Assembly: GCA_050273025.1 (NCBI GenBank)
Contig: CP158635.1
Location: 2,914,001-2,978,000, forward strand
Length of the DNA stretch: 64,000 nucleotides
Origin: Cenococcum geophilum
Lineage: Eukaryota
Direction: 5' to 3'
Below, in pieces: positions 18,817-64,000 of this stretch. Each line of letters starts with the position of its first letter. Position 1 is the first letter of the stretch. Made by a program: the position numbers and the translations under genes. The notes under the pieces are model-generated. The model saw nothing but the letters and a program-made list of their open reading frames with translations. It ran no database searches and had not been told where the DNA came from.

Positions 18817-18841
18817 TATAGTCGTTTTAATAATATCGGTA

Positions 18842-31963: not shown

Positions 31964-32183
31964 ACTCGCTTAGAGCCGAACGTCACGCGTTACCCACCCT
32001 CTCAAAACTACATACCCCCTATAACTTTACCAATATACCTTTATATTTTATAGATAGGGCCTTATTTTATAGCCCTTTACTAGGCCTATAAAAGAAGCCC
32101 TTATTTATATAAACTAGAGCTATATTAGTAGGACTATTGGGGGTATTATAAGGTACTAGTTTTTGGGGCGGGGTAGCTAAAAT
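31964..32183. mobile_element. Partial copy of the 18056-18816 foldback family (its TIR begins at 18836, before the transposon train)
   Basis: ACTCGCTTAGAGCCG...CCCACCC...CCCCCTATAACTTTACCAATAT matches 18062 onward. Confidence 0.75.
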
Positions 32184-40800: not shown

Positions 40801-43800
40801 TAGCATAATCCGGGCGCCGGGATAGTATATTAGTAGGATTTATCTTGCCTAGCTTATATTTAATCTTAAAATTAAACTTAGCTAGTTCTTTGGCGTACCG
40901 GGCCTAGCAAGCAGATAAGCTCTTAGTAGTTATAAAGTACTAAAGATTATTATAATTATAGAGCACGCGCGTTATATACACGGCGTGTTTAAGGTAATAG
41001 CGCCACGTTTTAAAGCATTGCACTATAGCGAGTAGTTCTTTATTATGCGTATTATACTATACTTCTAGGCTAATAAGCTTCTAACTATAATAAGCAATTA
41101 GGTGCCAGTAGAGTTAATCTCCCTACCCCAAAGGCTGCAGAAGTATACCGCTATAGGTATAGTCGGAAGCGTTAGTAATTACCATTAGGGGTAGATTAGG
41201 GTTAAAGTGGCAAAGTAGAGGAGCTTGCGTAAACGCAGCGCGTAGCTTATAGAACGCCTACTATATATTATCGGGCCAGGACTAGGGTTAATACCATTTA
41301 GTAAGCCCTTTTAACTTACGCTTCCTCTTCTTCTCCCTATCTAATATTAGGTTGTAATATACCCATGCAAGATATACGTGCAGGGGGTATGCAGTATCTA
41401 AGTAGTTCTAAATAAATCGCCTATAGAAGTTGGCAAAGCTAAGGAAGACCTAGATATCCCTATAGGACTTAGGCTCAGGCCATTCCTTAATAGCTTTTAC
41501 GCGGTTAGGGTCCATTATAATACCCCTAGGGGTAATAATAAAGCCTAGGAACTCAACGTTCTTAGTATAAAAGATGCATTTTAACAGTTTGGCGTATAGG
41601 CCCCAAGTGCGGAGCTGTCGTAGTACCTACTTAATATGCTTAACATGCTTGTCCTTATTATTTAAGTAAATAAGAATATTATCTAGGTAGACTATGTAGA
41701 TGGTATCCACTAGGGTTCCTAGAGCTTTATAAATATAGCTCTAGAAAGTTATAGGGGCGTTAGCAAGACCAAAGGGCATCACTAGGTACTTAAAGTAACC
41801 GTAGCGTGTCTTAAATATAGTCTTTTATTTATCTCCCTTTTTAATACGAATTCTATAGTACGCATTACAAAGATCTAGCTTTGTAAATATCTTCGCATAG
41901 CTAAGCCTATTAAAGTGTTCGCCGACCAGCAGTAGGGGGTACCGATTTTTAATCATAATCTTGTTTAGGCGTCTATAGTTAACACATAGCCGTATTATAC
42001 CGTCTGCTTTTGGCATAAAGAGGATAGGCGCTCTAGTAGGCGACTTACTAGGCCTAATCCAGCCCTTTTCAAGAGCACTGTCTAGGTACTCTCGTAAGAT
42101 CTGCAACTCTTTCTATAAGAGGTTATAGAGGGGCATTTACAGTAGCGTCTTACCTTCTTCTAAGTCGATCGCATAGTTGTACTCAGAGTTCTACGGTAGC
42201 ATACTTGCTAGCTTATTAGAAAAGACATTAATTTTCTCCTTATATATATCTAGTAGGCCAGGGGCCACAGAGGTCAAAGCGACTATTATGTGGTAGTATA
42301 CTTCTAGGAGCCAGTAAAGAGAAGGGTGCAGCCAATATGCGTTTCGTAGGTATACTCGCATAGAGAGTATATATAGCTCTACTGTAGTATACTCAATAGT
42401 TTTAGGGTTTCAATTACCTCCCCCTTATGTATAGGTAATCTGCGCCAGCACTAGAGGGTCTCTATAGGTACTCGCTGCTAGTAACGGCAGGTCCTCTACT
42501 ATGTTTACAACCGGTATTTCTACGTCCGGAGGGTCTGTATGGGTACTCGCTGCCAGTAACAACAGGTCCTCTATTATATTTACAACCGGCGTAAAAAAGG
42601 AGTCTTCTAGCTATAGCGAATAGACTGTTTCGCCAGCCTTAATATCTACCAGGAGAGCGTTAAGAGTAATTATCTAAAGGCGTCTAGGGTCCGAAGTACC
42701 CTAGATAAACTATCTAAAACGGAAGCTAATTAATAGATCTGCTTCCGCAAGCCAATCCTATCTAAGAACCATATTATAACCATTAAATAAGCCGCCCTAA
42801 AAGGTCTGCGGGCTAATGGTGTAAGGGGTACCCTAGGAGTCGCTAGTAGTAACCGTTAAATCATAAGCATCCCAGATTGTTATCTAGTTGCTATTAAGGA
42901 AATATACAATAGGTTTACGTAAACGTAGCGCGTAGCGTATAGGCAGGTTAAACCTATAGACGATATCTTAATTAATAAGGTTAATTTGGCACCCATTATT
43001 ATATAAGGCATATAGGCGGACTTCGCCCTAGGGCGTATTTATTATAACGTATACCACAATACGTTTCTTCTCTCCCTCTATATTAGGCCCTAGTTATAGT
43101 TAAGAGAAATACGCTACTAGGGCTTTGGGTTTTCTAAAGCCCGAGCTAACTTCTCTTTGGCCTGCTTCCAGTGTTCCTTATAGTAGCCGCCTGCGGTCCT
43201 TTAACTTGCCTACGTAGCACTAGCGTCTGGGGGGTCCCCTAAGCTATCCGGCTTTTAGGTGGTCTCCCCGGGAGTTTACTTAGAAAAGCATTACCCTTTT
43301 TAGGTTCTGTTCCCTAAGCCTAAGTCTATAAAGCCTATGCTGCGACCGCGCTTTATACGCAATAATTTACCGCTACCACTTACGCGATCTTCCGCGAGCT
43401 TTGTAGTATTAAGCAATTACTCTACATAGCGGATTTCGTTAAAGAGGTCTTTAGTAGTTCTCACCCGTTAGGCAAAGTTCTAGCGGAAGAGCTCTGCTTA
43501 TAGGTGGGCTAGAAGACGTAAGAACTAGAAGTCTACCTATTATTTAGGATTAATAAAAGGGGTATATAAGAAGAGGTCCTCTAAGCTACGCATACGGGCT
43601 AGAAAGACGTCAAACCTCTAGTTCTCCTTTATAATAGCCATATAGTATATTATAGCGTTATTAAAGCGTCTCACTATAGGGTTCCTAATCTAGTCTTGGA
43701 CTATAGTCTTAAATTCGTCCTATAGTAAGGGACCCTTGTCCTTAGTGCCTAACCGGCGATAAACTAGTTAGGTAATTATCTTCTTTTTTATAAGACCTTC

Positions 43801-44590
43801 AATAGCCTAGCGCGTGCGTCGCTTATAGTCATAGTTAGCGTTATTAACCTTAAATCGGTTCTTAACTGCGGCAATCTACTGGTTAAAATACTATTAAGTA
43901 GTACCGCCAATATTAGGTAGTGACTTCTTAACCAGGGCGTTAAGATTTAATCGGCGTATACGTTCGCTATATAACTCGTGCTCTTTACTAGAAAGGCGAC
44001 GGGAGGGCTTTATTAAATTAATAATGCTTTATAAGTTGGCTATTTTCTTAGCTAGCTTATCTAGCTCCTTTATATTAGCGGTATTAGGTAAGACGCTAGT
44101 AACCTTACTAAGCTTCTATTAAGCCTAGGTATATAAGTTAAACTAGTTTTTAGCGTTCGTAGATATCTAATCGTTTTGGGATTTGGAGAATGGCTCAGAT
44201 ACTCCTAATATGCTTTTAGCAGTTTCGTCTACACTAGATCCTAAGGCGTTCTATAGTTGCATTGCTAGCGTATTACCGTCGGGTATAGGCGTCAGTTTTC
44301 TTTTCGGAGGCATTATAGAAAAATTAAACCGGCTATCCTCCTAAGGGGATTAGTAAGGATTTAAATGTAAGGTAAGAATATAGATAGGGAGTCTAATAAT
44401 AGAATAATGGGTATATTGTATAGACAGAGACGAATCCTTAAGGGAAAAGGAGGAGTCTATATACGAGGTAGGAAGGGTTTTCCCTAGGCATGTATAAAGC
44501 ACGTACCTTACGGGCGAGTCACCCCTAGGTTACCCTAGGGTCGCCTATACCTTGCGGCTATATAACTATCTACTCAGGTTTTACCTAATA
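37819..44590 (-). mobile_element. Ty3/Gypsy chromovirus D (minus strand)
   Basis: 225-bp LTRs at 37819-38043 and 44366-44590, TSD AAATT, PPT (C-run at about 38047-38054); gag ATG at 44313; RT fragment EKGWIRPSKSP...IRLCVNYRRLN in ORF 41825-42106. Confidence 0.95.
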
Positions 44591-45164
44591 AAATTTTATT
44601 AAATTTTAATATAACTCCTAGAATCTTGTTGTTGGAGAAGACGCAGCCGGATTTGGAGGTTCCTACCCCCCGTTTTAGGAGGTAGTTTCTCCTCGCTTAG
44701 ACCCATATCTGTCGCCGCTTTTACAACGTGCTAAGCATGCCAAGGGCGGCAGGGTCTCCCTTACTAAACTTAGAAGCGCTGCAGCCCTGCAACGCACCTC
44801 TTAAAGCCCTAAACGTCCCTCGGCGACTATTTAAGAAGCTATAGACCGCCGCCTACCTAATCCTGTCTCCACCTTCGCCCTCATCCTCCGCTAAAAGCAC
44901 TACCCTCACATAACAAAAACTCCTTTTTATACTACGCTCTTTTAACCCTTTTCCCACAGTAGTTACGTATATATTTTCCCCTGCTATTATATCATTCACC
45001 CCTAATACTTAATTTCTAGGTTTCTACTTACGGGGTTTTTTTGCCCTGTCCTATTCTTAAGAACGCCTATCTCCCGTAGAGCCTTTTTTAGCATTCTTAT
45101 TTGCTCTTAAGCTAGGTAACTAGCAGCTGCTAAAGCACACTAAGACACCACGCGTTTAACTACT

Positions 45165-47687
45165 ATGCCCTCTTAAAGCAAGAAATGGCAAAATATAGAT
45201 TTAGCCTCTAGCTTAGACTTGGAACTAGGCAAGCCGTCTTATTCTAAGCTAGCTTCGGACTTAGATTTAAGCTCTAACTCTAGAGCTAGGGAAGACGCCG
45301 ATTCTAAGGGGGAATATTTACGGCAGAGGATTGCGTATTATAAGGACTAAGGAAGAGCGAAGTTAAAATAAAAGCCCTAGTTTACTTCTCTTATTAAGTA
45401 TAAGTTCCAGAACTAGGAAAAGTTCGTTTATATTTAAACTAAGATTTACCTTATAATACTAATGATTTGTATTTAAGTTCTGCCTAAAAGTTAAGTCTAA
45501 CCCAACTAAGGCCCTTTATTAGTATACAGCCGATATATTTAAAACATACCTCAAATAGCGCGTGAAGAATTCTTAAATTAAGAAGGAAAGCGCGATTAAG
45601 GCGTACTAAAGACAAATACTGTGTAAATTTATAGATATAGCAGGCCATAGTATAAATAATAGCGCAGAACTTAATATACAAGATATAGGGCAATCTTTAA
45701 TTTTTTAAAAAAAAAACTTAGCTAATTTGTTATAGTGGATTCTAACCTACTTAACGCTAATATATAAGCTAGATACGTTGGAGAAAGAAAAGAATATAAT
45801 ATATATACAGGACTTGTATATAATTATTAATACCTATTAGATAATGGACGCGAAGCCTTACTATAGTTGTTTTTGAGTATAAATGGGAGCAATCCTCCTC
45901 CTCTTTAGTGCCACAGCAATAAGACCCTAAGCTCTTATTAAAAGTTTAAGCGTAAGAGGCTCTAATAAAGCGCTTTTATATAAATATATTATAATCCTAA
46001 AAGTTTATAATGCGAAAAACTTTAATTAAACCATAACTGTTGCCCTTGTAAGTCTCGTGCATATTAAGAATTCTAAAGGCATAGGTAGACGGTATATAGC
46101 GACGCCGATTAAAGACGGCGCGAATAACGCTAATAGCCCTATAGTAAGAGGTTTATTTTCCATTTTAAAAGTATCCCAGCTTTTTATATCCTATCCTATT
46201 TTATAAGCCTTACCATCGCAAATAATGCATTTTAACGCCATTATACTTCGCTAGAAGAGATTTTTAGACTTAAAATCCTAGCGAATAAAGAGAGTCTTAA
46301 AGTAAAGTTTAAGAAGGAAATAGAGAAACGACCCATCTTTTAAGATATTAAGATAATGGCTAGTTATAGGGGAGTGTTAAATACCAAAGCATTCCCTTAC
46401 CAGAAATGCCGCGATTACTATATATGGTTAGGCTAAGTGGCCGGGTTTAAATAATCGCTTAAACTTTACTAGCTGCGATAAGTGTCCGGAAGGAAATTAA
46501 ATAGTAAGTGTCTAATTTAACATAAGCGCATCTATTAACTAAGCTTTCTAGGCGCCCTTACTCTAGAAGAGCGAAATTAGATAATAGGTTATTACGGCGA
46601 TACCTACTAACGGTTTTATTTACCTAATTTAATTAAGCGCGATTTCTAGTTAATCTACTTCGGGACTCTATTGCAGGACGACCTTATCTAATATACCGCA
46701 CGGATAGGGATCTTAAGGGATAAGCGGGCCCCTATAGGTCTAACCGACGAGTAAAAGCTTAAATTCTAGTTAGAACTTAACCAATACCCTAATATTCTAT
46801 AGCTTTATAAGAAACAAGAGCGATATAAGCGAAAGATTAGGAGCCGGGGATATTACCCTATTACTGCCGCGAAGGGAACGAAACTATATAACCGTTACAA
46901 CGAAGCTAGACGTAAACTTAATAGTGTTATAAACGTCCTGCGTAAACAAAAAGAGGACTAGGTTATTCTTAATTTTTATAACGCCATTAACAATTACAAT
47001 ATTAAAAAATAGCTCAGTGGTAGCGTTAGGACGGATATTTCTACCTATTTAGCTATATAGTATAAATTTCGCGAATGTACTGCTATTGCTAAACTGCTAT
47101 CTTAGCCGCTAAATAAGCTTAAAGAAGGGCACGCTATAAAACTCCGTATAAAGTTTATCTATAATCTTGTTAAGTATTATAATTAATAAAAAAGCTAGTA
47201 GAATAGGATCCTAAGCAAGGCTATTAGATTTTAACTTGGGTCTAAAGTAGACTAAAATATAATAGGCGTAAAAAGAGGTGCAAGTAACACTAATACTAGT
47301 ACCCATTAATAGGTAAAGCGGTAGAAAGAATAGATTAGCTTAGACTTGCCTTTCTAAAAAAACCTAGATAAGACGCGGAGCGCGGTCCTAATTAAGAAAG
47401 AGGGTGTTAAGATAATACAGCCGCCGTATCCTATAACGTTTACTAATCTTATTTGCCTTATCTATATCAGCAATAACTAACTCTTAACGCTAGGGCAGAC
47501 CTGCCTATTTACGAAGAAGGATACACTATAGAAGCATCTCAATAATTACGTTACAGAAGGAGTATTTAGGTAGGGGTTCTACTATAAGCATCCTTATTGT
47601 TTAGAGTGGATTAAAGGACTTAAGCATTTTAAAAATCACGTAGCCCTTATATATAGTATATAGCATCTAATTAAGAGGCACTACTAG
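45165..47687 (+). pseudogene. DUF3435 tyrosine recombinase (Starship captain-like), intron-containing, RIP-inactivated
   Basis: FKTYLK*RVKNS*IKKESAIKAY*; LLFSATAIRP*ALIKS; ALTIANNAF; LPYQKCRDYY...LKLY*LR; RDF*LIYFGTLLQDDLI; and a C-terminal C2H2-like region (LICLIYI...LKHFKNHVALI). Recognised by recalled family motifs, not by a search. Confidence 0.8.
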
Positions 47688-49957
47688 GTAAGTCGCCTTA
47701 CTTATGCGAGAATCCTATGCTAACCCTCTAGTACTAATAGAAAGGCATATAACTAGTAAACTTAGAACTATATATTTCTTATACATAGGACCTTTTCCTA
47801 GTTATTACGCGCTTATCTTATTATTCTTTATCGCTTTTTATTTTATTTTATTATATTAGTCTATTATTATCTAATCCTATTTTAGTATTTAATAGAATAG
47901 ATAGAGATCTTATGGAGCTAATATACCTTAACCAGCGGATCGATCTTATCCGAAATTTTATATAGTTATACTTATATTAAGAGGCTTGGCGACAGAATAC
48001 GCCTCCTAATACGTTAAAAGGGATCGCCATAAAGTATATAACGTTTATTACTTATATAGTTATATTATAGAAGGAATAAAGTAAAGTGGAATAAAATAGA
48101 TGCGATTAATATATTAATATCTGGCTTATACTGCACTATCTTATAAGCTACGTATTAGTTAGGGATTAGCTAAGATTATTATAGTAATATAATCCCCTTT
48201 TTATTTCATTCTATTTTATTCTATCTTTTCTTATTAGCCTTCTAAATGCAAGCTATATAGTAAACTCATAGCTAAGGTGCGCATATAGACAATATGCCTC
48301 GTTTCGCTGCTATATATCCTATAGTACCTATCTTATATACTACATAAATAATATAAATTAGCGATTAGTATATAAGCTATAAGACGCGTTATAGACGAAA
48401 TGGCATATGCCCTATAACTTAACTCCCTCCTATTTATCAATATAAGATATATATCTAACTCCTACGTATAACTAGGACCAGAACTAGGCCCTAGTATATA
48501 GCCCCATACTTTAAGCCTATTACTTAGCTTAAAGTTAGGAGGATATTAGTATAATCTAGTACTCTAATACTTGCTAGCTTAGCTATCCGAACGCCTCTAT
48601 ACCTATAATAGCCTACTAATGAATTTTTTATAGGCAATTAGCGTTTCATTCTCGTTTTTTAGGTTATTTAAAGCCTCTAATTTTAGACCTATATATACTT
48701 TCGTACGAATCTCTTTACTCTTTAATATTTTTAGTCTTTTAATTTATCCGAGTTAAGGTTAAGGATACGGTATACAGTTTAATTAAAGATAGTTATATAT
48801 TTAGCTCTAAGAATACTCCCCTAGCGTTTCTAATATCTATAAAATTATATCCCTAGTAATATGTTCTATATATAATATATAAAACAATTACCAGCCTTTA
48901 TATATAAGTTTTTATAGCTTTATATATTATAGCTAATCTAGCTTCTAACGCTAAAATAAAGTAAAATTAGTAATAACTAAAAGAAGGAATTTAAGAAATA
49001 ACGTAATATTATTTACTCTTATTTTAAAGACTATAGGTTAATAACGGATAATAAAGAAGATAAGGCTTTTTAAAACCTTATTAATTACTATAACGCTTAT
49101 AACGATTTAGAGAAAGTTTAATATTTAAAGGAGATACTGCTTAACCTTATTGGGGTAGAGACCTAATAAGAGATGTTTACTAAGAAAATATTATAGGAAG
49201 GATAGGAGACATTAAGATATAGAATTTAGATATACTGCAGGCCTTAAGAAGCTCCTAGATATAACTTAATAATAGTATAGCGGTACTTAATAGATTATCT
49301 CCCCCGTTATAGCTAAATGTGCAATATAACTTTTATTTAATTTATTTAAAGGGGCATTATCGCCAGGTATACCGTGATATTATTACTTTAAATACTTATT
49401 TTCTATAGCCGGAAAACCCTCCTTTAAAGAGCGACTAAAACCTACCCCTTACTAATTTATTTTAGTAGGCGGAACGCCTAGGTGCCAAAACTGGCCCCTA
49501 ACTATTAGTACTAACAGCGGGCCTAAAAATAGGTCCTATAGGCGCTGGTTTTTTTTTACTAGGTAGTAAGGGATAATAGTACGGGAGAATCTAACTCTAT
49601 AAGCCGTAAGGGCTAAATCGCTTAAACGTTAAAAGGGAAGAAAAACGCCTAATTAGGTATTAGTAAATTAGTATATAGGCATACATAATAGCGAGCTAAG
49701 GTAAAACTGGAAAACTTTAATTAGGGATTGCTCTAAAGCGGACTAATCTAAAGCATAGCGCCCTCTAAATGTATAGCTAGGATCTTAACGGATTTAGCGG
49801 CTGCGGCTTAGGTCTTATAAGCTAGAAGGTTATAGAAGCTAGGGGATTCTATAAGTTAGGTAGTTATATAAATAGGGTAGTCTAACCTAGCGCCCTTTAA
49901 TTAATACCTAGCGTGTAAATAGGGTATTAATAGGTTTAATAACTTCGTGGTTTTAAT

Positions 49958-50498
49958 CCTGCGAGCTAGATACTCGTGCGAGCTAGGCGATCCTATAAGC
50001 TAGGTAATTATACGAGCTAGGTAATTATACAAGCTGGGCGATCGTGCGAGCTAGGCGATCGTGCGAACTGGGTAATCGTGCGAGTGGGGTAATCGTGCGA
50101 GCATGGTGCTTGTGGGAGCTGGGCAATCCTGCGAGCTAGGTGGTCGTGCGAGCTAGGTGATCGTGCGAGCCGGGCGATCGTGTGAGCTGGGCGATCGTGC
50201 GAGCCGGGCGATTGTGCGAGCTAGGCGATCGTGTAAGCTGGGCGATTGTATAAGCTGGGCGATCGTGTAAGCTAGGCGATCGTGTGAGCTGGGCGATCGT
50301 GTAAGCTGGGCGATCGTGTGAGCTAGGCGATCGTGTAAGCTGGGTGATCGTATAAGCTGGGCAATTGTATAAGCTAGGCGATCGTGTAAGCTGGGCGATT
50401 GTATAAGCTAGGCAATTGTGTAAGCGGGGCGATCGTATAAGTGGGGCGATCATGTAAGCGGGGTGATTGTGCGAGTAGGGTAATTGTGTAAGCAGGGT
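49958..50498. repeat. 17-bp tandem repeat (GTGCGAGCTGGGCGATC)
   Basis: Direct reading; bracketed by a direct repeat TCTAACCTAGCGCCCT at 49881 and 50501. Confidence 0.95.
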
Positions 50499-51319
50499 AA
50501 TCTAACCTAGCGCCCTCTATTAACGCCTAGCTTATAAATAATAAAAAGCAAATATTAGGAAAATATTAAAACTATAAAAAAAGGAAATATATAAGTCCTA
50601 AATCTAGAAATATAAAAGAAGTTCCTACATAAAGACTCCTATAAACTTTATAACGACTTAAAGCCCCCTTATATATACTTAGAGAAATTTATACATAAAC
50701 AGCCCTATAAGCGAAGCTATAAGTCTAAGCCCCCTCGCGTAACCTAACTACCCCTCCCCACCACACCGGAATAGATAAACAATCGCTATATATAATAAGT
50801 AGAGAAATAATTTAAATAAAAAGAAAGCACTATAAAATAGCATATTTATATCCTTAAGGTATAAATCTATAAGTACCTTAGTCTTAAATATAACTAATAC
50901 TTACTAAGGTGGCATACGTCCTAGGTCCATAAAAAAATTAAAAAATCCTAGGTCGTTAGCGTAGATTTACCTTTTATTACCGCTTTTAAGGTAGTAAATA
51001 AATTCATCTAAGTAAAAGCATAGATTATCGCGAATACTTTATAGCTCGCTATAAGTTAAGCGGGTAGAGACTTTAGTAGAAATAGTGAAATATTGTTTTA
51101 TTTCGCAATAGGCTAAACAAAAAGAAGCTAAAGTTTTAACCCTTTTACCAGCTTTTATTAGAAATCTTCTTTATATTTATATCCTATACTTATAGATTTA
51201 AGACTATAAAGCTAAGGCCACTATATCCAACCGTCGCCTATATAGCCTTATCGCTTAATATCTCTTTATTACTATCTACCCCTATTTCTTAATCCTTAGT
51301 ATTAAAGTCATTATTATAT

Positions 51320-51760
51320 ATTATTTTTGCGTCCTATTCTTTATTCTCATTACTTAAGTCACTTTCCCAACCAGTCCACGCCTCTACGTTACCGTTATTA
51401 TATTTAAAGTCGGTTTCTCCATCTATAAATACCCACTCACTAGCTAGCAATTTAGGGATAGTATACTTATAGGTACTTAGGGGTTACGGGATACTATTTA
51501 AGGAGTTATAGTTAATGCTATTAGAATATAGAATAAGTCTATAGACCTCTAAGTATTAAATACTTAGCGCCTTAAATAAAAGATCTCCCCTAACGTAAGG
51601 CAGATTAATAGGAGTTAGTATACCACCTATATAAGGCAGAGCGCTTATAAAGGGCTTAGCTAAAATACCAATTAAACCACTCTAAAGGCACTAATACCTC
51701 CTTTGCCATAAATAGGGGGTTAATATATAAGATTAACTGGCTAGGATAAGTCTACTACTT
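51320..51760 (-). pseudogene. Possible degraded gene of unknown function
   Basis: A stop-poor minus frame (SGLIGILAKPFISALPYIGG...EWVFIDGETDFKYNNGNVEAWTGWESD); no family recognised. Confidence 0.25.
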
Positions 51761-54700
51761 AGGCAGTATCTTGCCCCGGGAAGGATAGGCGTTAGAAGTG
51801 GATTATATATACTATTCCTGCTAAGGGAGGCGTTATTAGGGGTTATTGTTAACTTCCAATTCTAATTTATAACTTTATACAAATATCTCTAAACCCTGCT
51901 AAGGTATACGGCGTCCGTTAGGGATCGTTAGCTATTTAAATTTAGTAATAGCTTAGCTAATAGCTACTCCAAATAATGCTTTACTTATAGATCACTTTAG
52001 GCACCTATAGTTTCGGGCGTAGACAATATATAAGCTAAGAGTAATTACAGCCACTAAATATTGTACTATAGACACCACATAAAGTGGAAAAGGGCGGCTA
52101 GTATACTCCGCTTTTCCCTTCTACCTTCTGTTCTAACTCCGCCCTAGAAAAGAAATAGAATATAAACGTTATACCCCTAGTTCTTATATGCCATTAAATC
52201 GACTTACCTTTAAATCTAACCTCTTAACTATATATCCCTTACTATCTTTATAAGAATACTAGACATTATATATATTACCTTAACTAAGCTTAGATACGTT
52301 ACTAATATAACCTATAGGTCCTCAATCGGTACTTATAAAAACATTATAATATACTATCGCCTTAAAGATAATATACCTATTTATTAACTTGCTAAGAACC
52401 TTAAATTATCTTAGAATTATATTAATAATAAAGATATAGTATCTGCTAGCAGGGAGAAGAAACAGTTATAGCTTTCTAACCCTATGTAGAAACAGATGCC
52501 TTATACGCCTGCTTAAACACCTAATAACGTTAATTCTTACGAAAACGATAATAATATAAAGGGCGATATATAAGAGGATACGGAAATGTACCCTAATTAC
52601 CTTAAGGGACTAAAAGGCTACGGTAAAGCAGAGGTAAGCCTATATAAGCCAATAGAGGACAATAATAAGACTAAGATAAACTCGCCTTAACTAAAAGAGA
52701 ACTATATTAAAGGCTTATCCTAGCTAACGGATACTATTATAGGTCCTAAATATATGTCGCTAGTACCTCCAAGTACGTTTATAAAATATCTATATATTGC
52801 TTAGCAATACTAATAATTAAGTAGAGAATGGTTTGGCCAATCCTATAACCTTTTTTAGAGTTATAGCTCCTCTATATAAAGCATTAACAATTTCTAATAC
52901 TATAATTTTAGACAGATAGCTAAAGTATCTCTTATTATAGTTGCTAACTTACTATATAATAAAGGACTTAAAGCGTCTCTAAAACCCTAGATATAGATAT
53001 ATCGTATTTACGTTTAGTCCTATCGTAGTAGTATACTAGTATCCTACCTAGGTTTCACCCGCGGGTATACTATATAAGAGACTTATATCATTCTATACCA
53101 AAAATCCATATCACCTCCATTATTATACTAGGATACACAAACCGCTTAAAGATGTTATAATAGAGATAGCTTAGAGAAGTAAGCAAAGAGACCAACCAGG
53201 AAAGGCACTAGACGATTAATTAGAAGATCTATTAAGGGGAGGGACATATAAGAGAAGGTTAGATTGCACCATAAATAGAGCCTCTAAGAAGCTAAAGAAA
53301 TGAGAAATTTCTTATAAGAAAAGACTTTTATAATCACGTTTTTATTTTCTAGCGTTAAGAATTAAGGCATTAATTAGGATTTCCTTAGCTTAGTATTGTT
53401 TTTCTATCTAGTTACTTCCATATCAAAAGTATCTTATTATTGTTTATATATACGTTAGGTTAAAGTTAAAAACTTATATTATAATAAGCTTAATAAGCGG
53501 AAGGCGTATTATATAATATAAGGAGAATTACTACCTAAAGCTATAGATTATAGGTGCTCTGCATTCTAACTTTATTAAAGTAGTGTAGTTTAAAGCGCCT
53601 TAGTAAGAGGCGGGATAGAAAATCTATAAGTATTTAGGGCGGAAGCCGATTTCGCTAGCGACTATATAGCGGGACCGGTTAACTATAGTCCGATAGCGCT
53701 AATAAAGAATACGCTAAGTATTATTACAATCTAGTAATTAGTATAAGCAGCAAACACTAAAGTATCTGCGTTACTACTTACGCTAATCTAGTTATAAGCT
53801 AGCGAGCCTAGTAGCGTAGGTAATACGGGCTATTAGAATTACGCGGCTGTTAGATTTATATAGCCATTAAATTCTAGTAAAGGTTAACCAAAAAGTAAAT
53901 TACTTAGTGTAGGAAGGGGAGGTATCGGCAAATATTTTATACCAATATATATATAACCTAAAGAAATTCCAAGGAGTCTTAGATAACCTTACGCTTAAAA
54001 TTATCTAGCTTATACCATTACTCGCACCATTACTTACACTATTAACCTTTACCTAATTAACCCTCTATAGCTTCGCCTTTAACTAATATTTTAAGATATT
54101 TAGTACGGGTTCTTATCTAAACTCGCCTAGCCTAACTTTAGAAAATTTATCCTTTTATTAACCAGGCCAATACCAAATTAATTAAAAAACTATTAGTTAA
54201 AATAACCGGCAGCGTTAAAACAACAAATATATACTATCTTATTACAAGGATATTAGATAGGAAGAGATTGGGACAAATAGATATTATTTTTAACTATAGT
54301 GTATATCTAGACGCGCATTAACCTTAGGTTATAGCTTTTAATATAAAAGTTGGCGATTTAAGTTTAATAATTACGGAACTTTTTAATCCAGCTATATGGC
54401 CGAAGGTGAATGAGATAGTAGAGTGGTAAAGGGCAATAAATCTTAAATATAATGTTGATTTCCCAAGTTAAATAGATATTCGGAGGGAAGAATATATTAC
54501 CCTCTTAGTAAGTATTAACGTTTATTTTAAAATTTAAATACTAATATCTTTAATAGTCTTAGGCATCCGCATTATAAGCTTAGTATTATTAGTAACTAAC
54601 TAACACCTAATAACCCACCTATCTATCTACCCTAAATTATTACTACCACCTCCCTCTTCCTAGCTAAACTAATAACTACTTATATACCTAGCAGAGAATA

Positions 54701-57700
54701 ATTTCTTAATTATATATATTAACTTTCCTATTGTTTGTCTAATTTGCGGACTAAATTTTTACGCACCCTCCGAGATATAGTCTATTTAAGATAGCTTTAG
54801 TAAAATTTAAAATTAGCTAAAGGGAGCTACGCGCGGAGCATACTCTTACCTACTTAAAGTTAGTATATACTATTTTAGGTATAGTATATATAACCTACTT
54901 AATTATCGCTTACTAATAAGCTTAGTAGTGTTTTTAGTAAACAACCATAATACCTAGGTTGTAGGGTCCCCTCTACCTACTACACACTCAGGCAGTAATA
55001 TAGATCATCAATATTATCCTAATACTTCTTAGAAACATTACAGTCTACATATTCACATTAGGCCTATTAATAGGTTATTATCTAATATATAGTACGCTAC
55101 TATCCAGCAGTTAGTATGCCCTATTTTAGAAATCCCCCCTACGTTAAGCTTACCCAAATTAGGAATTATAGTAGACTTTATTATAAATGCTAGTCTAGGC
55201 GTTTAGGGGTTAATAAGAATTTATTCTTAGAATTAGAATAGTTTAAGAGTACCTTATAGGCATTTATATCATTTCCACAACTACTTAATATAGATTTCTT
55301 GGCAGCACCATTTAGATAAAAACGGCTGCAGTAATAGTGTCTTAAGAATATACACTAAAATATTAGGACTATTCTACTTTTAGATTTAGTTAGGCGTTTA
55401 AATTTAGCAGATTTACGTATCTTAATGCGGATGTCCGCACAGCGGAAACACTGGTGAGATTATTTTAGCCCTACTAAACGCCTAGCCTTATGCCTCTCCG
55501 CGTATACTAGCGGAATAAAAATGCCAGACTAATCCTAACCCGTCATAACGTTAGAGTTCTTAGGGTATTAGGCATTACTGCCGAATATATAATAACCGTA
55601 GAGGTTAGGCTATAGTTTAGCAGCCTAATAACTTATTATAAGTTAAACGGGGCGGAAAAATAAACTAATGGAAAATAGTGGGGCACGTATAGGACTAATA
55701 CTCGCGCGTCACCTGTTCTTTCCTCACTTTTTCTTACTTATATGCGTTAACTTACTCTCCCTAAACCTTAGAATTAGAAGTTGGTCGGTATATATAAGTC
55801 TATATATATAGTAGCATAAGGCCGTCGAAAACGGACTCTGCACCTGTACGTGGTGACGGCTACGAACCTGGGTCTTCGAAGTTCAGACTTAGAGCCAACG
55901 TAGAGACGTCGTATAGCGTGCGATAGGACCTGGTGGTCGTGGTTGTGAGCGTTGTGGGCGGTGGTGAAAATTTTTTAGATGGTGAGATCTCGAAAACCAC
56001 TACTGTGGCCCTCTACAATTCAGCTACGCTATTCTCCTATCAAGGCACCTATACAATCCAACGTGGATATACGGCATTCGATAGCATCCCCCGACCCCCA
56101 ATAGAAAGCATTAATGACCTCTTATATCGACAAACGAGCGATTGCGAACGAGTAAGCAGACGAATGAGCAAATATACGGCCCCTCCTAACCCCCAGGGCG
56201 ATCGCCCGCGGAGCATGCGGTTACTCGCCGTTTTTTCTACCAAATACTACCTAGCAGCCTGGATTGCGACCCACGGTTTTCCCTGTCTTCTTTTGACGGA
56301 GTAGTGACCCTTAGAAAGGGCCTAGCTGGGGCCTAGGCATAAAAGATACCCAAATATAACATAATATCCCGCTCGCTTATTAGTATTACGGTAGTTAGAA
56401 CGGATGAATCCCCCTTACGCCTTTAATAGGCCCTAGGGGGGGGAAGGCATGGCGTATATAGCAATGGTTAGACAAGAAATAGCATACAGGGGATGGCCAA
56501 GATATGGGAAACAGCAGTACGGTAATTAATTGGCAAGGCCTAGCTGGGACGTAGTGAACCCTAGCTAGGGTAAGCTAGAGAAGGAAGCAGTGGTTCCTAA
56601 GGAGTTCGAACATCTAAGGAGGACAGGACGTAGCCGTAGACCCGTAGGGCCGCCGCTACGGACGGACATGGTAAATCGGGGTTTTTCATCCTACTGAGGT
56701 GGCTCATAGGGTTTTTCCTCCCCCCCAGCAGCAAGGGTTTTTTCCCGTTAATATTACTTTTCCCTTGTGTACGGAGTAGTCTGCGTGGGGCTAGATAGCA
56801 TCCGTATCAGACGTTAATTAAAGAATTATTATTATTATATAGTAGCATAAAGGTATAGATTTTATATTATCTCTAGAAGAGCCTAATTTAGAGGTATATT
56901 CTAGGCCCTATTCTTTTAGCGGGACATCCGTAGTAAAAATATCCTCTTAAAATACCCCTACTAATCCTATAGTAGAAGTAAGCCTTATAGTACTAACAAT
57001 TAAATAGTAAGGCGGTAATATTTTAATAAACCCCCGCCTTTTATTACGTTATTATAGGCTCTTAATCCCTACTTGGATTTTTTAAGTGCCTTTAGTATCT
57101 ATAATCCTCCACTTTCTTAGCTATAAGGCTATAATCTTATTATAAACTAATATCCTCCGGCCCTAAGGAATTGAATTAATATTCTCCGCCTTCTACCGCA
57201 ACAACTCCGCTAGTAAAACCCACGGGCGTACCTTAAAATTAGGCTTCTTAACTCTAATAACTTTATAGCGCTTCTCTCCTCTAATAAACTATATAATATT
57301 ACTATAACTTTAGATAAACCTTATAGGATTAACTTCTTTTAATATCTCCTTAATAATATTGGGATCCGTCTCAGTATAAATAGCTTTAAACTTTCTTTTC
57401 TTTTTATCGTCCCTATATAATAACGCATTAATCCATTTACCAAAAGTAATAGCATTCTCCGCCTTTATATAGTACTTTTAAGTATTCTTAACAAAATTAT
57501 CTAGCTTTTAATTCTGCCGCTTTATAATAAAGTTTATTAAACGCGTATTAACCTTCGTAATGCCATTAACTTTAATATCTATTATAAACTTAAACGCCGT
57601 ATTTGGCTAGTTCGGCCTCTTTGATTTTATAGGCAAATTAAAAACTATAAAAATATAGTAATGTGGATTACTATCTATATAACGCTCTTAACTCCTAAAT

Positions 57701-58091
57701 ATTAACGTATTCTCCGGTATAAGAGCCTTTAACTTTATATAAAACTCTTTATAGTTAACAATTTAACTTTATAACTATATAACTAAAACGTACCGAATAT
57801 AAAGATAGAAAGGTTTTTTAATAACCTCTTCTTTACAATCCAAAGAAAAAATAATAGATTTAGGAGTGGTGGGCGCACTTATTAACCTAGTAATGTATTC
57901 TATAATATTATACCCATATTATAATTAAAAACGTTCACAACTATATACTCCCTATAATAATATAGTAAACATAGCTAATATGGCTAACATCCTACCACCT
58001 ACCTGTAGCGCAGTCTAACCTATAGTATAGACCCTTAAACCTATATCTAACCTACCTCTTTCTTGCTTATATCTCCAAATTCGCTTAAGTA

Positions 58092-58222
58092 AAGTACCTT
58101 TCTACTAAAGGTATTATAGGGAAGTTCATCAACCTATTAACCTAGCTTTTCCTAGGGCCTAGGAAAAGCTAGATCAATAAGTTAATAAACTTTCTTATAA
58201 TACCTTTGGTAGGAAGGTACTT
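58092..58222. repeat. 131-bp palindrome (65-bp arms, 1-nt spacer); third arm copy at about 59537-59603
   Basis: AAGTACCTTTC...CTTTTCCTAGG-G-CCTAGGAAAAG...GAAGGTACTT; mismatches are transitions. Confidence 0.9.
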
Positions 58223-60704
58223 AAGGCCATTAGAAACGGGTATATTAGTAAGAGCATATAGGTCGGCACTAGACGGATTTAGAAGACCTTAGGTTAGACA
58301 CAGCTACGCGCCGTTAGAGAAAAAAAACTAGTGGGTTTTAGACAGGTAGAGAAAGGGCAATAATAGGTTAGAGCATCGGTTAGAGAATGGTCTGGATTAA
58401 TTAAAACAAGTAAAGATATAGAGTATATTGGCCATGTAGTATTAGCGCAGATAGGGAGATAAGGGTTAAGGGATAGAAAAGGACCTTAGGTCATTTATTT
58501 TAATTGTTTTATTTTTTAAAAAATATAATAAATAGTAAGTGTAGTAATACTATATAGGAATAAGTGGCTAGACACAAAAGTAGGAATTAAATAGTCGATT
58601 CTAGGGACAACAGTAAGTTTAGGTTAAAAACTCTCTTCTAAAAATAAAGCTAAACAGTTATAGACTTCTTAACAAGCAATATCGACTCTAAGTCTAGTTA
58701 AGAGATAGCACTTTAAGGGTAATCACACTTAATATTTAACGGTTTATTATAACGTGGCTTGGTTATAGAATAGTATTCTAACTATTAAACCTATTTATTA
58801 TAAAAGTAATAAGGAGGTTAGTCCTCCTAGTTATAATAAAGATTAGAAACTTCATTTAAATATATAGCAATGGTATTGTTAGGCGGATATTAGGCAAGAT
58901 AGCGAAGGGGATATATTGCCTTATAACTCCTCTTAAGAAGTAAAGAAGAGGGAAAAGAGTAGTTTTACTGTTATTATAAAACCATTTCCCCTTAAAGAGA
59001 AAGATTTATTAAGTGTTAGCTTAAATAGTATTATTAGGAAAATAGGGTGGTTTATTAAAGATAGCTCGAGATATTAAGTACGTATTATTAAATTTTAGGT
59101 ATTTAGTTTTATGGTTTTTGGTCATTAGAGTAGTGTTACTAATACTTAATATATAAAGAGTTTTTAATTGTTGTTAGACACAAAAAGTATAAGGAACTCG
59201 ATACTCTTATTAAACTAATATTAATATAGTTATATTCTTAGTATAGAGGTTATATTATAACTATAAAGTATAGAGGTATAAAAACGTAGAGCGGCTCTAT
59301 AATAAGTGAAGTGAGTTAAAGGTACAAAGCAAGGAGAAAAAGGAAGGTAGGACGGTCGTTAGATAGGAATGGTATCATTAAGATTAAAGGAATACTTTAG
59401 GTATATAATAACGGCCTATAGAATACTTAGAGTATATTAGGCGGGGGTTACAGGACTAAAGGTTTTATACGGGCCGCTAGGCCTTATAGAAGAGATCTAG
59501 GTTTTTCTAGGTATAGCATAGCCACAGTTAATATTGCCCTAGGAAAAGCTAGGTCAATAGGTTAACGAACTTTCTAGTATTACCTTTAATAGAAAGGTAC
59601 TTTAGACGAGCGCATTTAGATATATAAGCGAGTGCTAAGGTAGATCGGGCATAGCTATAACCTATCCTACTGCGCCTTTATACTGTGGGAGCAGAATAAA
59701 CCTTATAGGGTTTAAAGAACGTTGCCATTAAGGACGACCTCGTTCTATAAATATTCTAATAGCTCCTTATTTAGAGGATATTACAAGCCAAGAATTAATT
59801 AATGCTCTAGGCGCACTTAGTATATAAATTTTTATGCTACGGATTTACATTTGGATACCTAAGTATATTAAAGCTAATATCTCTAGTAGTCTTAAGCACC
59901 AGTATAAAGCAGTAACTAAACCCTGCTGTCTTTATAGAACCCGGGCTAGCAACCAGCGAGCACTATATAGCTATTACCGACGTCCTAAAGAAAGGTGGTA
60001 CCTTAATAGATAGGATCGAAGACTGCTATAAGGAATTGGAAGGAGGGCCTAAAGCTATTACTCTACGCGCTGCCTATAGCGAGTTCGCAGCGTCTCTAGT
60101 ACGGTATCGCGATATAGTCCTAAAGGATTGCGTGGTGCATATAATATAAGGGAGAGAGAAATCTAAAGGCGTAGTTAAGCCCGCCTAGTAGGGAAACAAG
60201 GACGTATAGGTAAAGGGGAGGAGCTCCACAGGCTTAGTATTAGTAACATCCGGCTCTATAAAGACTTAGACACCCCTTTATAAGAAAGGGCTAAGCAGTT
60301 TAGGTTATATAATAGGGGCGTAAAGCGAGGGATTATGCGTTCCGTGGCTTAAATTAAGGCTATACACTTTTTCTATATTTTGTTAAAAGCCGTATAAGGC
60401 AAAGCGGCTGCAAACGCCTAAGCCGTAAATATAGTATTTTTAATCGGATTAGATAATTAATTGGCTTAGCATTGTCTTAGGCGTAAAGGTCTCCTTTTAC
60501 TTTTGAAAATTCTTATTTATAGCTCGCTTTAACCTTAGTAGTAATCTTTACTTTAAATATATCACTATAATACTAGATAATTAATAGCCTACTAGCGTTT
60601 TATAGGGTAACTAAGGTACAAGTTAGCTCTAAATTATATATTAATAAGGTAGGAATATTAAGAATAAATATAGGATCTACCCGTTAATATTGGCCTAAGT
60701 TTTA

Positions 60705-61010
60705 ACTAAAAACAAGATCTTATTCTAAGAATTAGATCTAATTCTAAAAACTATATTCTAATTCTAAAGGCTATATCCTAATTCTAGGTTCCGGACGTAC
60801 TAAACGTGACTAAAAAGGTATAGTATTGAGCCAAACGGACTATTTTTAGTTCTAGCTTAAATTGCGGTCTAAAAACCAGATCTAGTTCTAGAGACTAGAT
60901 TCTAATCCTAGTTTTAGGACATGGGCCAATTAACTACTATAAAAAGGGCACAATTCTAAAAACCGGATCTAGTTCTGGGAACTAGATTCTGTTTTCGGGG
61001 AACAGGTCAA
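60705..61010. repeat. Degenerate short-repeat cluster (GATCTAGTTCTRG.AACYAGATTCT)
   Basis: Recurs at about 60715-60790, 60877-60905 and 60962-60990. Confidence 0.6.
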
Positions 61011-61465
61011 TTAACCGCTGCGAAAAGAGGTTAACTATATCTATATTTGCATATTAGGTTTAGCTTATTTTAGAACTAGCCACGTAATTATTTATAGGCG
61101 CCTTTTTAGCCTCGCTATATAAGCCTTACGCGTTACAAAATAAACTAAAACCAATAAGTATAATTAGTTAAAGACTAGCATTAACTAAGCCTTATAAAGC
61201 CTTAGTCTAAGCTACATTAGATCAGCTTAACTTTTCCGCGCCCAATCTTTAATCCTCCGTATTCGCTCGTACCTTACTTTCTTCCTTATACTTTCCTCCC
61301 TAACTATTTCCTTATTATAAGACGCGCCCGACGTATACTCGGCCTCCCTACACTTATCTGCTATTATACCGTCCGTTATATACTAGCCTCTTTAATCTCC
61401 CCTTCTTATCTACCTCCCGCCTGCCACGTTAGCTCTTAACGTAGCTCTTAGTGCGTTTGCTTATA

Positions 61466-63845
61466 ATAGCAAATCTCTCCTAATTAGAGATAATTAAAAC
61501 GAAACCTATCGGAGAAGGACTAAATGACTTTTGCAATTTATTTAACTTAGCTTATTAGGATCTAAATATCTTTAGCTCTTTAGACTTATTACACCAGATA
61601 GGTAATAAAGGTAATTATTAATATACCTATTATAAGTTTCTATCTAATGCTTACAGAACTAAAGGATATTTTGCTCGATCTAGTACTAGCTCTACAGAGC
61701 CTTCTAGCTTCTTATTTATTACTATCTAACAGCAGTAATAAAAGCCTTCTTATTAATCTATTAAGACTTAATTTAGCGGTCGGTTCTGATAACTTTAATA
61801 TTAAGCGGTTTCTACCTCTTCTAAATGCGATCCTTCGGATTAAACCTAACAAGGTTATCTAGGAAAAGGTATACGCTACTATTATAGAGTCCACGCCTCT
61901 CCCCTGACTGCTACTATTCTACATTTAAACCCTATATCAACGCAATATAAGCAGCTTCGCCAACTCGTCTAAATATAGGAAATACGTAGATAATATTCTA
62001 AAGGAGGAGCTAGGCCCTCTTTATATGGGGATTCCTGGCTTATATAAAGCATTCTTTAGAGGAGTAAAAGGTCTTAAAGAGGTAAGCGCTGCCGTTTTTA
62101 AGAAATGTAAGGAAGGGGACAATTCACTATATGCTGAGGGCGGCTGGCGTAACTGGCCTGAAGGCGCGAAAGAATGTAAAGTCTTAAAGTGGTTTAATAA
62201 GCTAATTATATCATTTCTAGACTTTATAAAGGAGTACGGGTTCGTTCTAAAGGCACGATAAAGACTAGTAAAGTATACTTAGTAGCCCTTATAAGGATCT
62301 ACGGCCGACTAAAAGCTAGATATCGGCTTTATAAATAATCTAATAGCTAGCGAAAGCTCCTAATGCTATTAGTTGTATATACTTATACTAGGAGAGCTAA
62401 AGAGTAATCTAAACACTAATATAGCCTCAAAAGCATGGTTTGACTTAGGGAAATATATAAGGGAAGTATTTGCCGCTTAGGATAGTCGTTGCTTTATTCT
62501 AAGCTTTACCCTTTATAAATCTATTATGCGGTTATAGGAGTATAACCAGGTAGGAGGTATTATATTATCGCTATTTAATATTAATAAGGACGGACTACAA
62601 TTTACCTTAGCAATATTGGGATTTCTCTAAATAAATAAGGAGCAGCTTGGGTTTAACCCTACAATTTTAATATCGGACGGTAAACGGTATATTAAAATTA
62701 TACGTAACAACTAGACTAAGTGTCTTATCCTTAACGAACTTATAAAACAGGCACGCTATATTGCTAGTCAAGCGACTACTTACTAGAAAGTACACCGTAA
62801 GGGGACACCTAAGATACCCCTTATTATTAAAGACTCGTAGCAGTACTTAGAGCGCAAGGAAGAAGGCAAACTACTACATAAGATATTAGAGAAGGGAGTA
62901 GTTAACGTAGCTAGGTACTATCACTATAAGACTATTCGCGTAAGTGGATAAGATAATAACATCTTTAATATTCGCAAGGGGCTGGATATTACAAAAGCAA
63001 CAAACTATAAGCCAGAAAGTTTAATAATGCCTCTGAGACTAGCTAGAGTATAAGGAAGTATAAGAAAAGGTTAAAGTTCTAGCAGAAAGAGGTCTTCTAG
63101 CTATAGCGCCCTATTACCGCCCGGTAAGCGCCTATATTCGACCTTTTTAACTAAGTACCCTATTATATAGAATCGCGTATACTGACACGTTATTACTAGT
63201 GACTATAGGAAGCCTCTTTATAAGGCAAGCTCTTGGGCTGCAATACTTACTATACTAAAGGGTGGTATTAAAGGATATAAATCTTTATATACGTAGGCCG
63301 GCATTATCTAATATAACATTTTAATAGGCAACCTTATAATAAACGAGGAAGATAACAATCCTTTTTAGCCGGCATTCTTAATTGACTTCAATCTCGCGAT
63401 TAAAGAGAAGTAAGAAGGACCTTTAGGAGTATAGGGTAAGACTAATACGAGAGTGTTTATAGCTATAGGAGTGCTTCTAGGCGAGAAATACTCCTTTAGG
63501 CATAATCTGGAATTGTTCTTTTAGGTGCTTTTCTAAATATGCGTACATTATAATGGGTTAGGTAAAGATATCGGTCTAACTAAGTTTAAGTATTGGAACT
63601 ATAAGAATACTATAAAGCTAGCTAAGTTAAAATCGGGGCTAATAGGTAGAGAAGGCCATTTTCTTAACCGTATAGCTAAGGCATTTATACCCTACTACCA
63701 ACCGCTAAAGCCGTGGGTTAATAGGCTGCGGAAGGTGGTTTTCCTAATAGACGGGAAGTGGGAGAAGGAAGATAGGGCGCTTTATTCCTAGATAAAAGAG
63801 ATTCTTTAGTAAGTATAAAAGGATTTAAAGGTATTAGCAGAGTAG
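61466..63845 (+). pseudogene. FunK1 (fungal-specific Pkinase_fungal) protein kinase, RIP-inactivated
   Basis: GELKSN; DLGKYIREVFAA*DSRCFILSFTL; IASQATTY*K; IIKDS*QYLERKEEG; LIDFNLAI; GKTNTRVFIAIGVLLGEKYSFRHNLELFF*VLF*IC; intron 61611-61656. Confidence 0.88.
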
Positions 63846-64000
63846 ATAAAATAACATTTTATTGCCCTGTACTCTTTCACTACACAAGTTAAAGGTTTGC
63901 AGAGATTTGGGCGGCTAAGGCTAGGTAGCAGCCTTAGTTAAAACGCATATAAAATAGCATAAGGTGGGCTAAATAAACCTAGGAAAGCGGATAACCTATC

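Follow-up and report, generated by a model that had tools for sequence, protein, structure and literature searches.

The 64,000-nucleotide stretch of Cenococcum geophilum DNA analyzed here (the window) very probably contains the left portion of a 42.9-kb derelict Starship, of the Serenity/Sanctuary type and killed by RIP, from a lineage with at least 49 copies. It begins at position 44617 and extends 23.5 kb beyond the window end, with a direct repeat ATAACT on each side; the portion inside the window (44617 to 64000, plus strand) carries the captain first and then the cargo. A Starship-like giant element with this arrangement had been proposed in the initial annotation and is supported by homology with other copies that reaches a common right end, while the length expected then (ca. 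16 to 19 kb) was too short. The copies differ in the first two bases after the left repeat, and ca. 50 copies is unusual for a Starship.

Boundaries and copies in the genome

The left boundary lies at 44616/44617, inside the range predicted for it (ca. 44600 to 45100), and the alignments of 35 of the 39 other scored genomic places start at query positions 1080 to 1112 (window 44579 to 44611). The left direct repeat (ATAACT, 44611 to 44616, plus strand), target-derived and with the family consensus ATWHCT, is followed by the dinucleotide that varies among left ends (44617 to 44618, plus strand, CC in this copy) and by a conserved left terminus (44619 to 44640, plus strand). The latter carries an arm of an imperfect inverted repeat that is completed at the right end; by eye, the left arm agrees with the reverse-complemented right arm at ca. 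12 of 17 bases. The right direct repeat (ATAACT, then TA, four W and AT) is found at extended positions 87513 to 87518 (G000:C1:3001513-3001518; adding 2914000 to any extended coordinate gives the G000:C1 position). A right end at extended 72135 was dropped because other copies continue there, after a 1.1-kb segment that is absent from the window copy. The abrupt change noted near 44620, with GC-richer sequence replacing AT-rich debris, turned out to be a local rise of 280 bp and was rejected as a marker of the boundary. GC content is 0.41 at 37811 to 44591, 0.04 in the 25 bp immediately left of the boundary, 0.53 at 44617 to 44900 and 0.35 at 44617 to 64000, so that the Starship is AT-richer than its left flank. 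This flank, outside the Starship, is an LTR retrotransposon (37811 to 44591, minus strand) with LTRs at 37811 to 38044 and 44360 to 44591 that are 89% identical (967 candidates were among the evidence considered); judged by eye, it would be of the Ty3/gypsy type, with a reverse-transcriptase-like frame at 41825 to 42112.

Searching with an exact degenerate pattern recovered at least 49 left ends and at least 42 right ends in the genome (reversed-pattern controls gave 0 and 0). Ends paired by proximity formed 32 same-strand pairs, spanning 27 to 91 kb and 1.42 Mb altogether, leaving 17 left and 10 right ends unpaired. All four copies that were fully read (27 to 33 kb) are colinear with the window copy and finish at the identical base. 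Copy alignment separates conserved blocks, such as those at 49750 to 53475, from 60580 to beyond the window end, and at extended 64676 to 74150 and 83644 to 87512, from blocks that none of the four fully read copies shares (47903 to 49750 and 53500 to 60480) and from an extra block with an internal duplication at extended 74150 to 83644. The break of the alignment at 47903 and the unshared sequence from 53.5 to 60.5 kb would fit a compact, captain-only transposon ending near 47.9 kb beside unrelated repeats, as would the appearance of cargo blocks in a second family and elsewhere in the genome. However, the homology pauses at 47903 only to resume in the same order and orientation up to the common right end with its direct repeat, and for 14 of the 32 pairs, in which the two flanks can be joined into an empty site, such a transposon is refuted. 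Some of the 17 left ends without a partner could still be of that kind, but as a general reading we regard it as very unlikely. Even less credible is the spread of the block by segmental duplication or ectopic recombination, with no transposition. Several copies do share flanking repeats, and the flanks of one pair (C7:64665) seem mismatched, i.e., apparently not belonging together, but both ends are common to the copies at base level, the flanks are in most cases unrelated, and the existence of uninterrupted flanking repeats (the empty sites) refutes it. The Starship insertions are mostly within AT-rich repeats. A second lineage that shares cargo has at least 52 left ends, which brings both lineages together to more than 100.

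Captain, cargo and RIP

The captain (45165 to 47690, plus strand) is a RIP-killed DUF3435 tyrosine recombinase, with a match to PF11917 (E=2.1e-29, at ca. 46194 to 47027) in the frame that opens at the ATG at 45165; its introns are predicted from a sister gene. The initial annotation had described an inward-pointing DUF3435-like relic starting ca. 550 bp after 44620, and indeed this ATG is 545 bp from that position and 548 bp inside the left boundary, the captain being the first gene and oriented inward. It aligns to the near-intact sister captain (71% nucleotide identity) over 45165 to 47681, with 38 stops in 671 aligned codons. Stops interrupt 42 of 42 aligned captain stretches (28 to 47 of them in each of the 39 in which 570 or more codons aligned), and RIP damage was present in all captain regions examined. 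The sister captain was ruled out as an undamaged source: after splicing, its transcript is divided between frames of 393 and 374 codons. Across the stretch in question it exceeds 37 of 38 family copies by 1 base. Inspection by eye located candidates for the catalytic R, YxxR, H and Y in the sister captain, while the window captain keeps R and Y..R but carries RIP changes. The sister motif is YQLRR and the matching broken motif of the window captain is of the YxxR type, not HxxR (YxxR being that of clades 1 and 3). An AlphaFold model of the sister gene, computed with no alignment, was unusable (pLDDT 35). Captain coverage was absent in the 12% of raw-read run X21 that was read, and neither a circle junction nor an alternative site could be read at the sister boundary because the flanking repeat swamps the reads.

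The RIP signature was found across the element in the window, in agreement with the claim of a RIP-killed block. Differences between copies are transitions (9 to 12%) far above transversions (0.3 to 1.2%, with one outlier at 3.4%), mainly at CpA/TpG. The annotation had reasoned that RIP implied a block that was once duplicated; its multi-copy nature stands, with ca. 50 copies in place of a single duplication. The copies probably spread in bursts and were killed by RIP afterwards, the window copy acquiring nested repeats later.

The cargo within the window includes a RIP-broken FunK1 fungal kinase (61602 to 63790, plus strand; PF17667 at ca. 62316 to 63542, E=1.9e-79), which confirms the kinase of the initial annotation and belongs to the conserved block that starts at 60580. 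The conserved block at 49750 to 53475 includes a 17-bp minisatellite (ca. 49955 to 50500), and a Pfam search of 50550 to 53500 gave no match in six of six frames. Among the sequences absent from the fully read copies, 48268 to 49459 matches two other loci (82 to 89%) and 53500 to 55820 has a homologue at C4:18317682 (84%). The statement that the cargo held no recognizable TE was wrong. A 1.02-kb dispersed repeat is nested at 55820 to 56838 (plus strand), with a (TAT)n tail, a target duplication of ca. 14 bp and 38 other places listed, at 82 to 96% identity. A 1.57-kb segment with inverted arms of 97 bp at its ends (58062 to 59632; arms 82% complementary) is probably a nested DNA transposon or MITE, and between it and the dispersed repeat lies a broken CRESS/geminivirus-like Rep relic (57157 to 57870, minus strand). 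The relic had been considered as the copy-number engine of the circle and was rejected as a core trait because, within ca. 1 Mb of fetched loci, it was found in the window copy alone. Pfam gave no match in nine frames covering 53500 to 55820 and 56840 to 58060 (minus strand) and 59630 to 60600 (plus strand). No DUF3723, FRE, PLP or NLR was found in 21 frames from parts of the window (one strand only for the captain and kinase stretches) plus three stop-free frames from the 23.5 kb beyond it, with RIP blunting Pfam, and cargo frames sought through homologous copies were only short, noisy stretches.

Target site and the variable left dinucleotide

Judging from the copies in this genome, the Serenity-type target seems to extend to ATWHCT-N6-AT. 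The columns of the left repeat are A 49, T 49, W 48, H 49, C 48 and T 48 of 49, and those of the target flanking AT are A and T in 49 of 49 each on the left, A in 42 of 42 and T in 35 of 42 on the right. Empty-site homologues were found for 15 of 33 junctions tested, none of them for the insertion of the window copy itself among the homologues searched. The right dinucleotide equals the commonest one of the empty site in 14 of these 15, and the remaining case falls in a CG/CA/TA RIP series.

The left side behaves differently. Just inside the repeat, between invariant neighboring bases, the dinucleotide is AC in 27 of 48 left ends and one of eight other states in 21, of which 20 differ from AC by a transversion (the background minor-transversion frequency is 0.005 per column). 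Even near-identical pairs differ there by a transversion in 8 of 31 cases. Where both sides could be resolved, the non-AC left dinucleotide differs from that of the target in six of six, and in the extra one-sided cases the target dinucleotide is on the left in one of five. Nor do the spectra mirror each other (TC 5 and AG 2 on the left versus TC 1 and AG 10 on the right). The second family shows no such variation.

Starting from the circular intermediate of Hephaestus, the captain would have joined both ends into a circle and recombined its junction into the target. From the ends, the circle junction would be arm-AT-AACT-NN-TAGA-AT-arm and the target AT-WHCT-NN-WWWW-AT. With a crossover in or beside the shared CT, the left end would therefore receive the two bases of the circle and the right end would retain those of the target. 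At excision, the circle would draw two bases from either end, sometimes those of the donor site, as in the crossover region of the Tn916 family. Donor-site bases carried via the circle appear the most likely source of the variable left dinucleotide, with about an even chance of being the true one. Counting against it are the negative donor-memory test described below, the left and right spectra that do not mirror each other, and a bias that this reading does not explain: plain heteroduplex resolution predicts the target dinucleotide on the left about half the time, yet it was there in only one of the five extra one-sided cases. Our overall proposal, which we hold to be just as likely right as wrong, is that Serenity-type Starships recombine over a two-base mismatch with fixed polarity at integration and carry the donor dinucleotide onward, as a eukaryotic counterpart of the Tn916 coupling sequence, and that this lineage spread to its ca. 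50 copies of 27 to 91 kb like an ordinary selfish transposon, beside the second cargo-sharing lineage.

A possible but less probable origin of the two bases within a Starship is error-prone or non-templated repair of the junction, with no donor flank involved. A donor-memory test was negative: the left dinucleotide matched the right one of a near relative in 0, 4 and 7 of 15 cases (1, 3 and 5 neighbors) versus 1.5, 3.7 and 5.4 after shuffling, the permutation test being not significant (4 of 15 against 3.7), although its power is low because donors may be gone. Whole-dinucleotide, per-base and uniform replacement models are less than 4 log units apart, the uniform one being just 2.5 to 3.7 units worse, and the left end at C1:23995826 is without both bases. 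On the other hand, all eight non-AC states are also found among the target dinucleotides (most of the absent ones would in any case be lost to RIP), spacing is preserved in 48 of 49 left ends, which error-prone joining does not favor, and the Hephaestus excisions described in the published text consulted leave no footprint. Improbable, and largely refuted, is a left dinucleotide that is a per-base mosaic of the element AC and the present target, or one inherited as founder variants. The majority of AC, the subclade of nine copies that is uniformly AC and the AT/TT and AA/AA cases, compatible with a mosaic, would speak for it. But of the 11 non-AC cases whose empty site is known, 9 do not fit a mosaic with the present target, and the left dinucleotide does not track the copy tree as founder variants should (nearest neighbors agree in 12 of 37 versus 13.4 shuffled, p=0.74).

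Relation to known elements and significance

The direct repeats and the sister captain point to the Serenity family, to which Sanctuary (repeats ATWHCT/ATACCT) belongs according to the text consulted (PMC12506042, PMC12257634). In a published table the sister captain is "n.d.," and the two other members of its 50/80 cluster are fam04 (Serenity); the part of the PMC11162782 supplement that was searched had 0 matches to "Serenity" (table S13 may lie elsewhere). The left repeat columns fit a Sanctuary-like ATWHCT, although such a repeat is not yet an accepted family trait, and a 2025 review considers, in the portion consulted, that the known Serenity members are too few for any particular repeat sequence to be expected (PMC12257634). 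As far as their consulted text goes, Sanctuary and Frontier also have the captain first and inward and imperfect 6-bp repeats, of which the 5′ one varies (ATWHCT) and the 3′ one, borne by the element, is fixed (ATACCT in theirs, ATAACT here) (PMC12506042, PMC12257634). In contrast, the lineage described here has 49 or more left ends within a single genome, RIP damage in all captains examined and a longer target, ATWHCT-N6-AT, and that text mentions no variable dinucleotide inside the 5′ end. No effector was recognized in the cargo of the lineage described here. Hephaestus, in the parts of its accounts available to us (10.1101/2022.08.04.502770; 10.64898/2026.09.21.753150), shares the DUF3435 captain, a conserved A seven bases past the TWAC core (TTAC-N7-A) and vulnerability to RIP, and is the source model for the circular intermediate, but by indirect assignment it is of a different family, and it is active and low-copy, with a junction treated as a fixed TT//AC and clean excision. 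Voyager and Derelict of Macrophomina resemble our lineage, in the sections consulted, in being multi-copy, in sizes that vary via nested TEs and in the persistence of degraded copies; unlike it, Voyager targets 5S rDNA and has 0 to 4 copies per isolate, though called the most active there (10.1101/2021.12.13.472469). Tn916/Tn1549, as outlined in the text seen (PMC5871717), likewise use a tyrosine recombinase and a circular intermediate with inverted arms around a short central region, need no match to the target, and enter an AT-rich, symmetric one (TTTT-n6-AAAA). They are bacterial, however, and have 5 to 7 variable bases rather than 2 next to a matched CT, whereas here the right end keeps the target bases in 15 of 15 resolved cases; by analogy, the likeness would be one of behavior alone, not of kinship.

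Starships have been described as low-copy in the portion of PMC11162782 consulted, and our literature search found, among the papers listed, no report of this Starship family or of such copy numbers. Nor did it find text joining Starships with a coupling sequence, heteroduplex or overlap region, although figures or bioRxiv supplements may show variable bases; the parts of the literature examined do not lay out the cut positions and homology needs of Starships. What seems new here is the pair of variable bases inside the left repeat. The ca. 50 natural insertions of one lineage resemble a saturation experiment and supply a full Serenity target, and the strand-exchange region would be narrowed to 5 bases or fewer, with the variable dinucleotide at its end. 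Should the two bases come from the donor, the ends of an element would allow its insertion history to be read. Finally, with two lineages and their left ends in such numbers, Starships can enlarge a repeat-rich genome by megabases and yet go unnoticed, since a published survey counts 37 captains and 0 elements for Cenococcum geophilum.

Boundaries and copy number of a dead Starship

A RIP signature covers nearly the whole window, which lies at C1:2914001-2978000 of a 178-Mb assembly of seven contigs (G000). The initial annotation had proposed a DUF3435 recombinase (the captain) and a FunK1 kinase, and a Pfam scan, with two of six frames positive, bore out both genes: the frame from the ATG at 45165 matches PF11917 (DUF3435, E=2.1e-29) and the one from 61602 matches PF17667 (FunK1, E=1.9e-79). 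The element occupies 44617-87518 (42.9 kb; positions above 64000 continue along contig C1, where 2914000 is to be added), with direct repeats ATAACT at 44611-44616 and 87513-87518 flanking it. Concerning the switch from AT-rich to GC-richer sequence claimed near 44620, there is a local rise but no such general change, for GC is 0.41 over the left flank, falls to 0.04 across the 25 bp that precede the boundary, reaches 0.53 at 44617-44900 and is 0.35 in the rest of the window. With 43500-47500 as the query and 40 of 1043 candidates scored, the left end was common to 35 of the 39 other places, starting at query 1080-1112 (one started at 1142, and three were interrupted). It was the same in 35 of 36 fetched loci, homology breaking off at the identical base. 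Four copies were read across 40 kb apiece and a further two across 20 kb. The first four are colinear with this one at 44610-47903, 49800-53475, 60590-74150 and 83644-87518, and all four terminate at one identical base; the two read partially share its captain as well as its block at 50.5-53.5 kb. This is a genuine Starship, now dead, and its superfamily is a known one.

Exact degenerate patterns, which give lower bounds, located at least 49 left and 42 right ends in the genome (reversed controls, 0 and 0). Pairing by strand and proximity yielded 32 elements, which measure 27-91 kb and add up to 1.42 Mb, leaving 17 left and 10 right ends unpaired. One pair, C7:64665-104671 (L030, L126), has left and right flanks seemingly from different repeats; this seems to be a mispairing, or recombination between two copies. 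The RIP on conserved blocks is explained by this copy number. Of the 47 copies whose captain region was fetched, the 38 with a single alignment block of >2.7 kb were aligned. Compared with the others, this copy shows 9-12% transitions and 0.3-1.2% transversions (one outlier, 3.4%), while the internal transversion difference of several subclades is ≤0.1%, which suggests that copies spread in bursts. Stops were present in all 42 captain stretches alignable to the protein of a sister element. Starships have been described as low-copy (PMC11162782), and Voyager is reported at 0-4 copies per isolate (10.1101/2021.12.13.472469). For Cenococcum geophilum, the starfish survey lists 37 captains and 0 elements, and in the passages covered of a genome paper on the species (PMC12910237) “Starship” occurs in the reference list only.

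Cargo, nested repeats and a second lineage

Conserved cargo includes a 17-bp minisatellite, the 50.5-53.5 kb block, which has no annotation, and FunK1. The cargo had been described as free of recognisable TEs, which does not hold for 53.5-60.5 kb, an extra stretch in this copy containing a dispersed repeat, a piece bounded by inverted arms and a Rep relic. The 1.02-kb dispersed repeat (55820-56838) has a (TAT)n tail, a 12-15 bp target duplication and nearly fixed 5' and 3' ends, and is probably a young non-autonomous retroelement, since its RIP damage is lower than that of its surroundings. The CRESS/geminivirus-like Rep relic (57157-57870, minus strand) rides in this copy only, among about 1 Mb of fetched loci. 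It has 43 protein matches at E≤0.001 (best 5e-22), Gemini_AL1 or Gemini_AL1_M being found in 11 of the 12 scanned (E≤0.01), and those of its relatives that are named come from Tuber and Phaeosphaeriaceae genomes; fungal Rep relics of this kind have been reported (PMC3198968). The long 12-bp and 23-bp minisatellites at 152-1698, 5524-6268 and 32900-37075 are related arrays of a single family, which also occurs inside some element copies. MITE-like inverted repeats of 130-230 bp are clustered at 18062-19295 and 31971-32159, with a relative just beyond the element's right end.

A second Starship lineage, with its own captain and its own left end (left repeat TTTACT), was present at no fewer than 52 places in the assembly (e.g., L131-L142); its right end was not found. 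Several cargo blocks, including the FunK1 block, are common to both lineages in different order, suggesting exchange of cargo between captains. DUF3435 genes of other lineages, almost without stops, are located at C3:7969165-7970527 and C2:17082788-17083330, with protein kinase frames nearby.

Target site and sister element

The left flank columns of the 49 left ends read A (49), T (49), W, H, C (48) and T (48), and the positions 3' of the right repeat are two that are free, four with mostly A/T, then A (42/42) and T (35/42). From these columns, the target is ATWHCT-N6-AT, symmetric around the two free bases. Within it fall both the TWAC-N7-A spacing described for Hephaestus (10.1101/2022.08.04.502770, 10.64898/2026.09.21.753150) and the ATWHCT repeat of Sanctuary, which has been assigned to Serenity (PMC12506042, PMC12257634). 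At least seven insertions share a single site of one high-copy repeat (L012-L014, L017, L042, L108, L130), which, read by eye, looks like a retrotransposon integrase; other host repeats were struck two to four times.

The sister element (C6:8330455 to about 8407190, minus strand, 77 kb) has the same end structure, and several family copies are inserted at the very repeat site that it occupies. The element (L130, L185-L191) shares little cargo and carries one stop-free 742-codon HET-domain frame; its RIP-free captain is 71% identical in nucleotides. A database protein recorded as coming from Cenococcum geophilum is identical to part of a sister captain in this genome, which makes that ectomycorrhizal species very probably the host. 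In a published table this captain is “n.d.” and heads a cluster whose other two members are fam04; the family is likely Serenity. The sister captain (C6:8403347-8407040, minus strand; L130:3347-7040) is transcribed but frame-broken: metatranscriptome contigs from runs X8 and X18 cover a transcript from which five GT-AG introns have been spliced and carry no letters differing from it, the spliced frame is broken into 393 and 374 codons, and DNA run X5 had no indel at the break.

The variable left dinucleotide

Between the left repeat and a conserved TAGA lie two variable bases (NN; 44617-44618, CC in this copy). Across 48 left ends they are AC (27), TC (5), CT, AA and TT (3 each), AG, CC and TA (2 each) and AT (1); a 49th lacks both. 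RIP cannot produce 20 of the 21 non-AC states, because they require a transversion, the background being 0.005 per column. In a sample not chosen by pattern, NN was non-AC in 13 of 35 ends and the next seven bases were identical in 34. The state is not inherited along the copy tree: nearest neighbours agree in 12 of 37 cases (13.4 when shuffled), and among 31 near-identical pairs, 8 show a transversion at these two bases. For 15 of 33 junctions, the host repeat was also found in an empty version. There, the right dinucleotide is that of the target in 14 (the 15th is compatible through RIP), whereas all six left non-AC states differ from it; in one-sided tests four more differ and one matches. 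In the second lineage, as a control, one of 30 loci examined (of 52) had a transversion in the two bases after TTTACT. It follows that the element itself carries the left dinucleotide, with a high rate of replacement at each jump.

Hephaestus has been reported to transpose via a circle made by its captain (10.1101/2022.08.04.502770, 10.64898/2026.09.21.753150). Here, the circle junction would have inverted arms around AT-AACT-NN-TAGA-AT. As W is variable at the left end (A 29, T 19) but constant at the right, and the four bases after NN on the left are element-derived (TAGA in 47/49), we infer a strand-exchange region that is no longer than five bases and has NN as its end. New states would most simply come from the donor's right flank, picked up at excision, for which Tn1549, a bacterial conjugative transposon with a mismatched crossover region reported in its circle (PMC5871717), offers a model. 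Several points speak against this carry-over: the donor-memory permutation was not significant, the replacement models for NN are inseparable, the left and right NN spectra are unlike, and it leaves the one-way polarity at integration without explanation. We give it about an even chance; error-prone repair is a less likely source of the new bases, and other explanations are less probable still. Among the papers listed by a text search, none reported donor-flank carry-over in Starships. High copy number, an extended Serenity target and a variable two-base junction place this element above an ordinary fossil.
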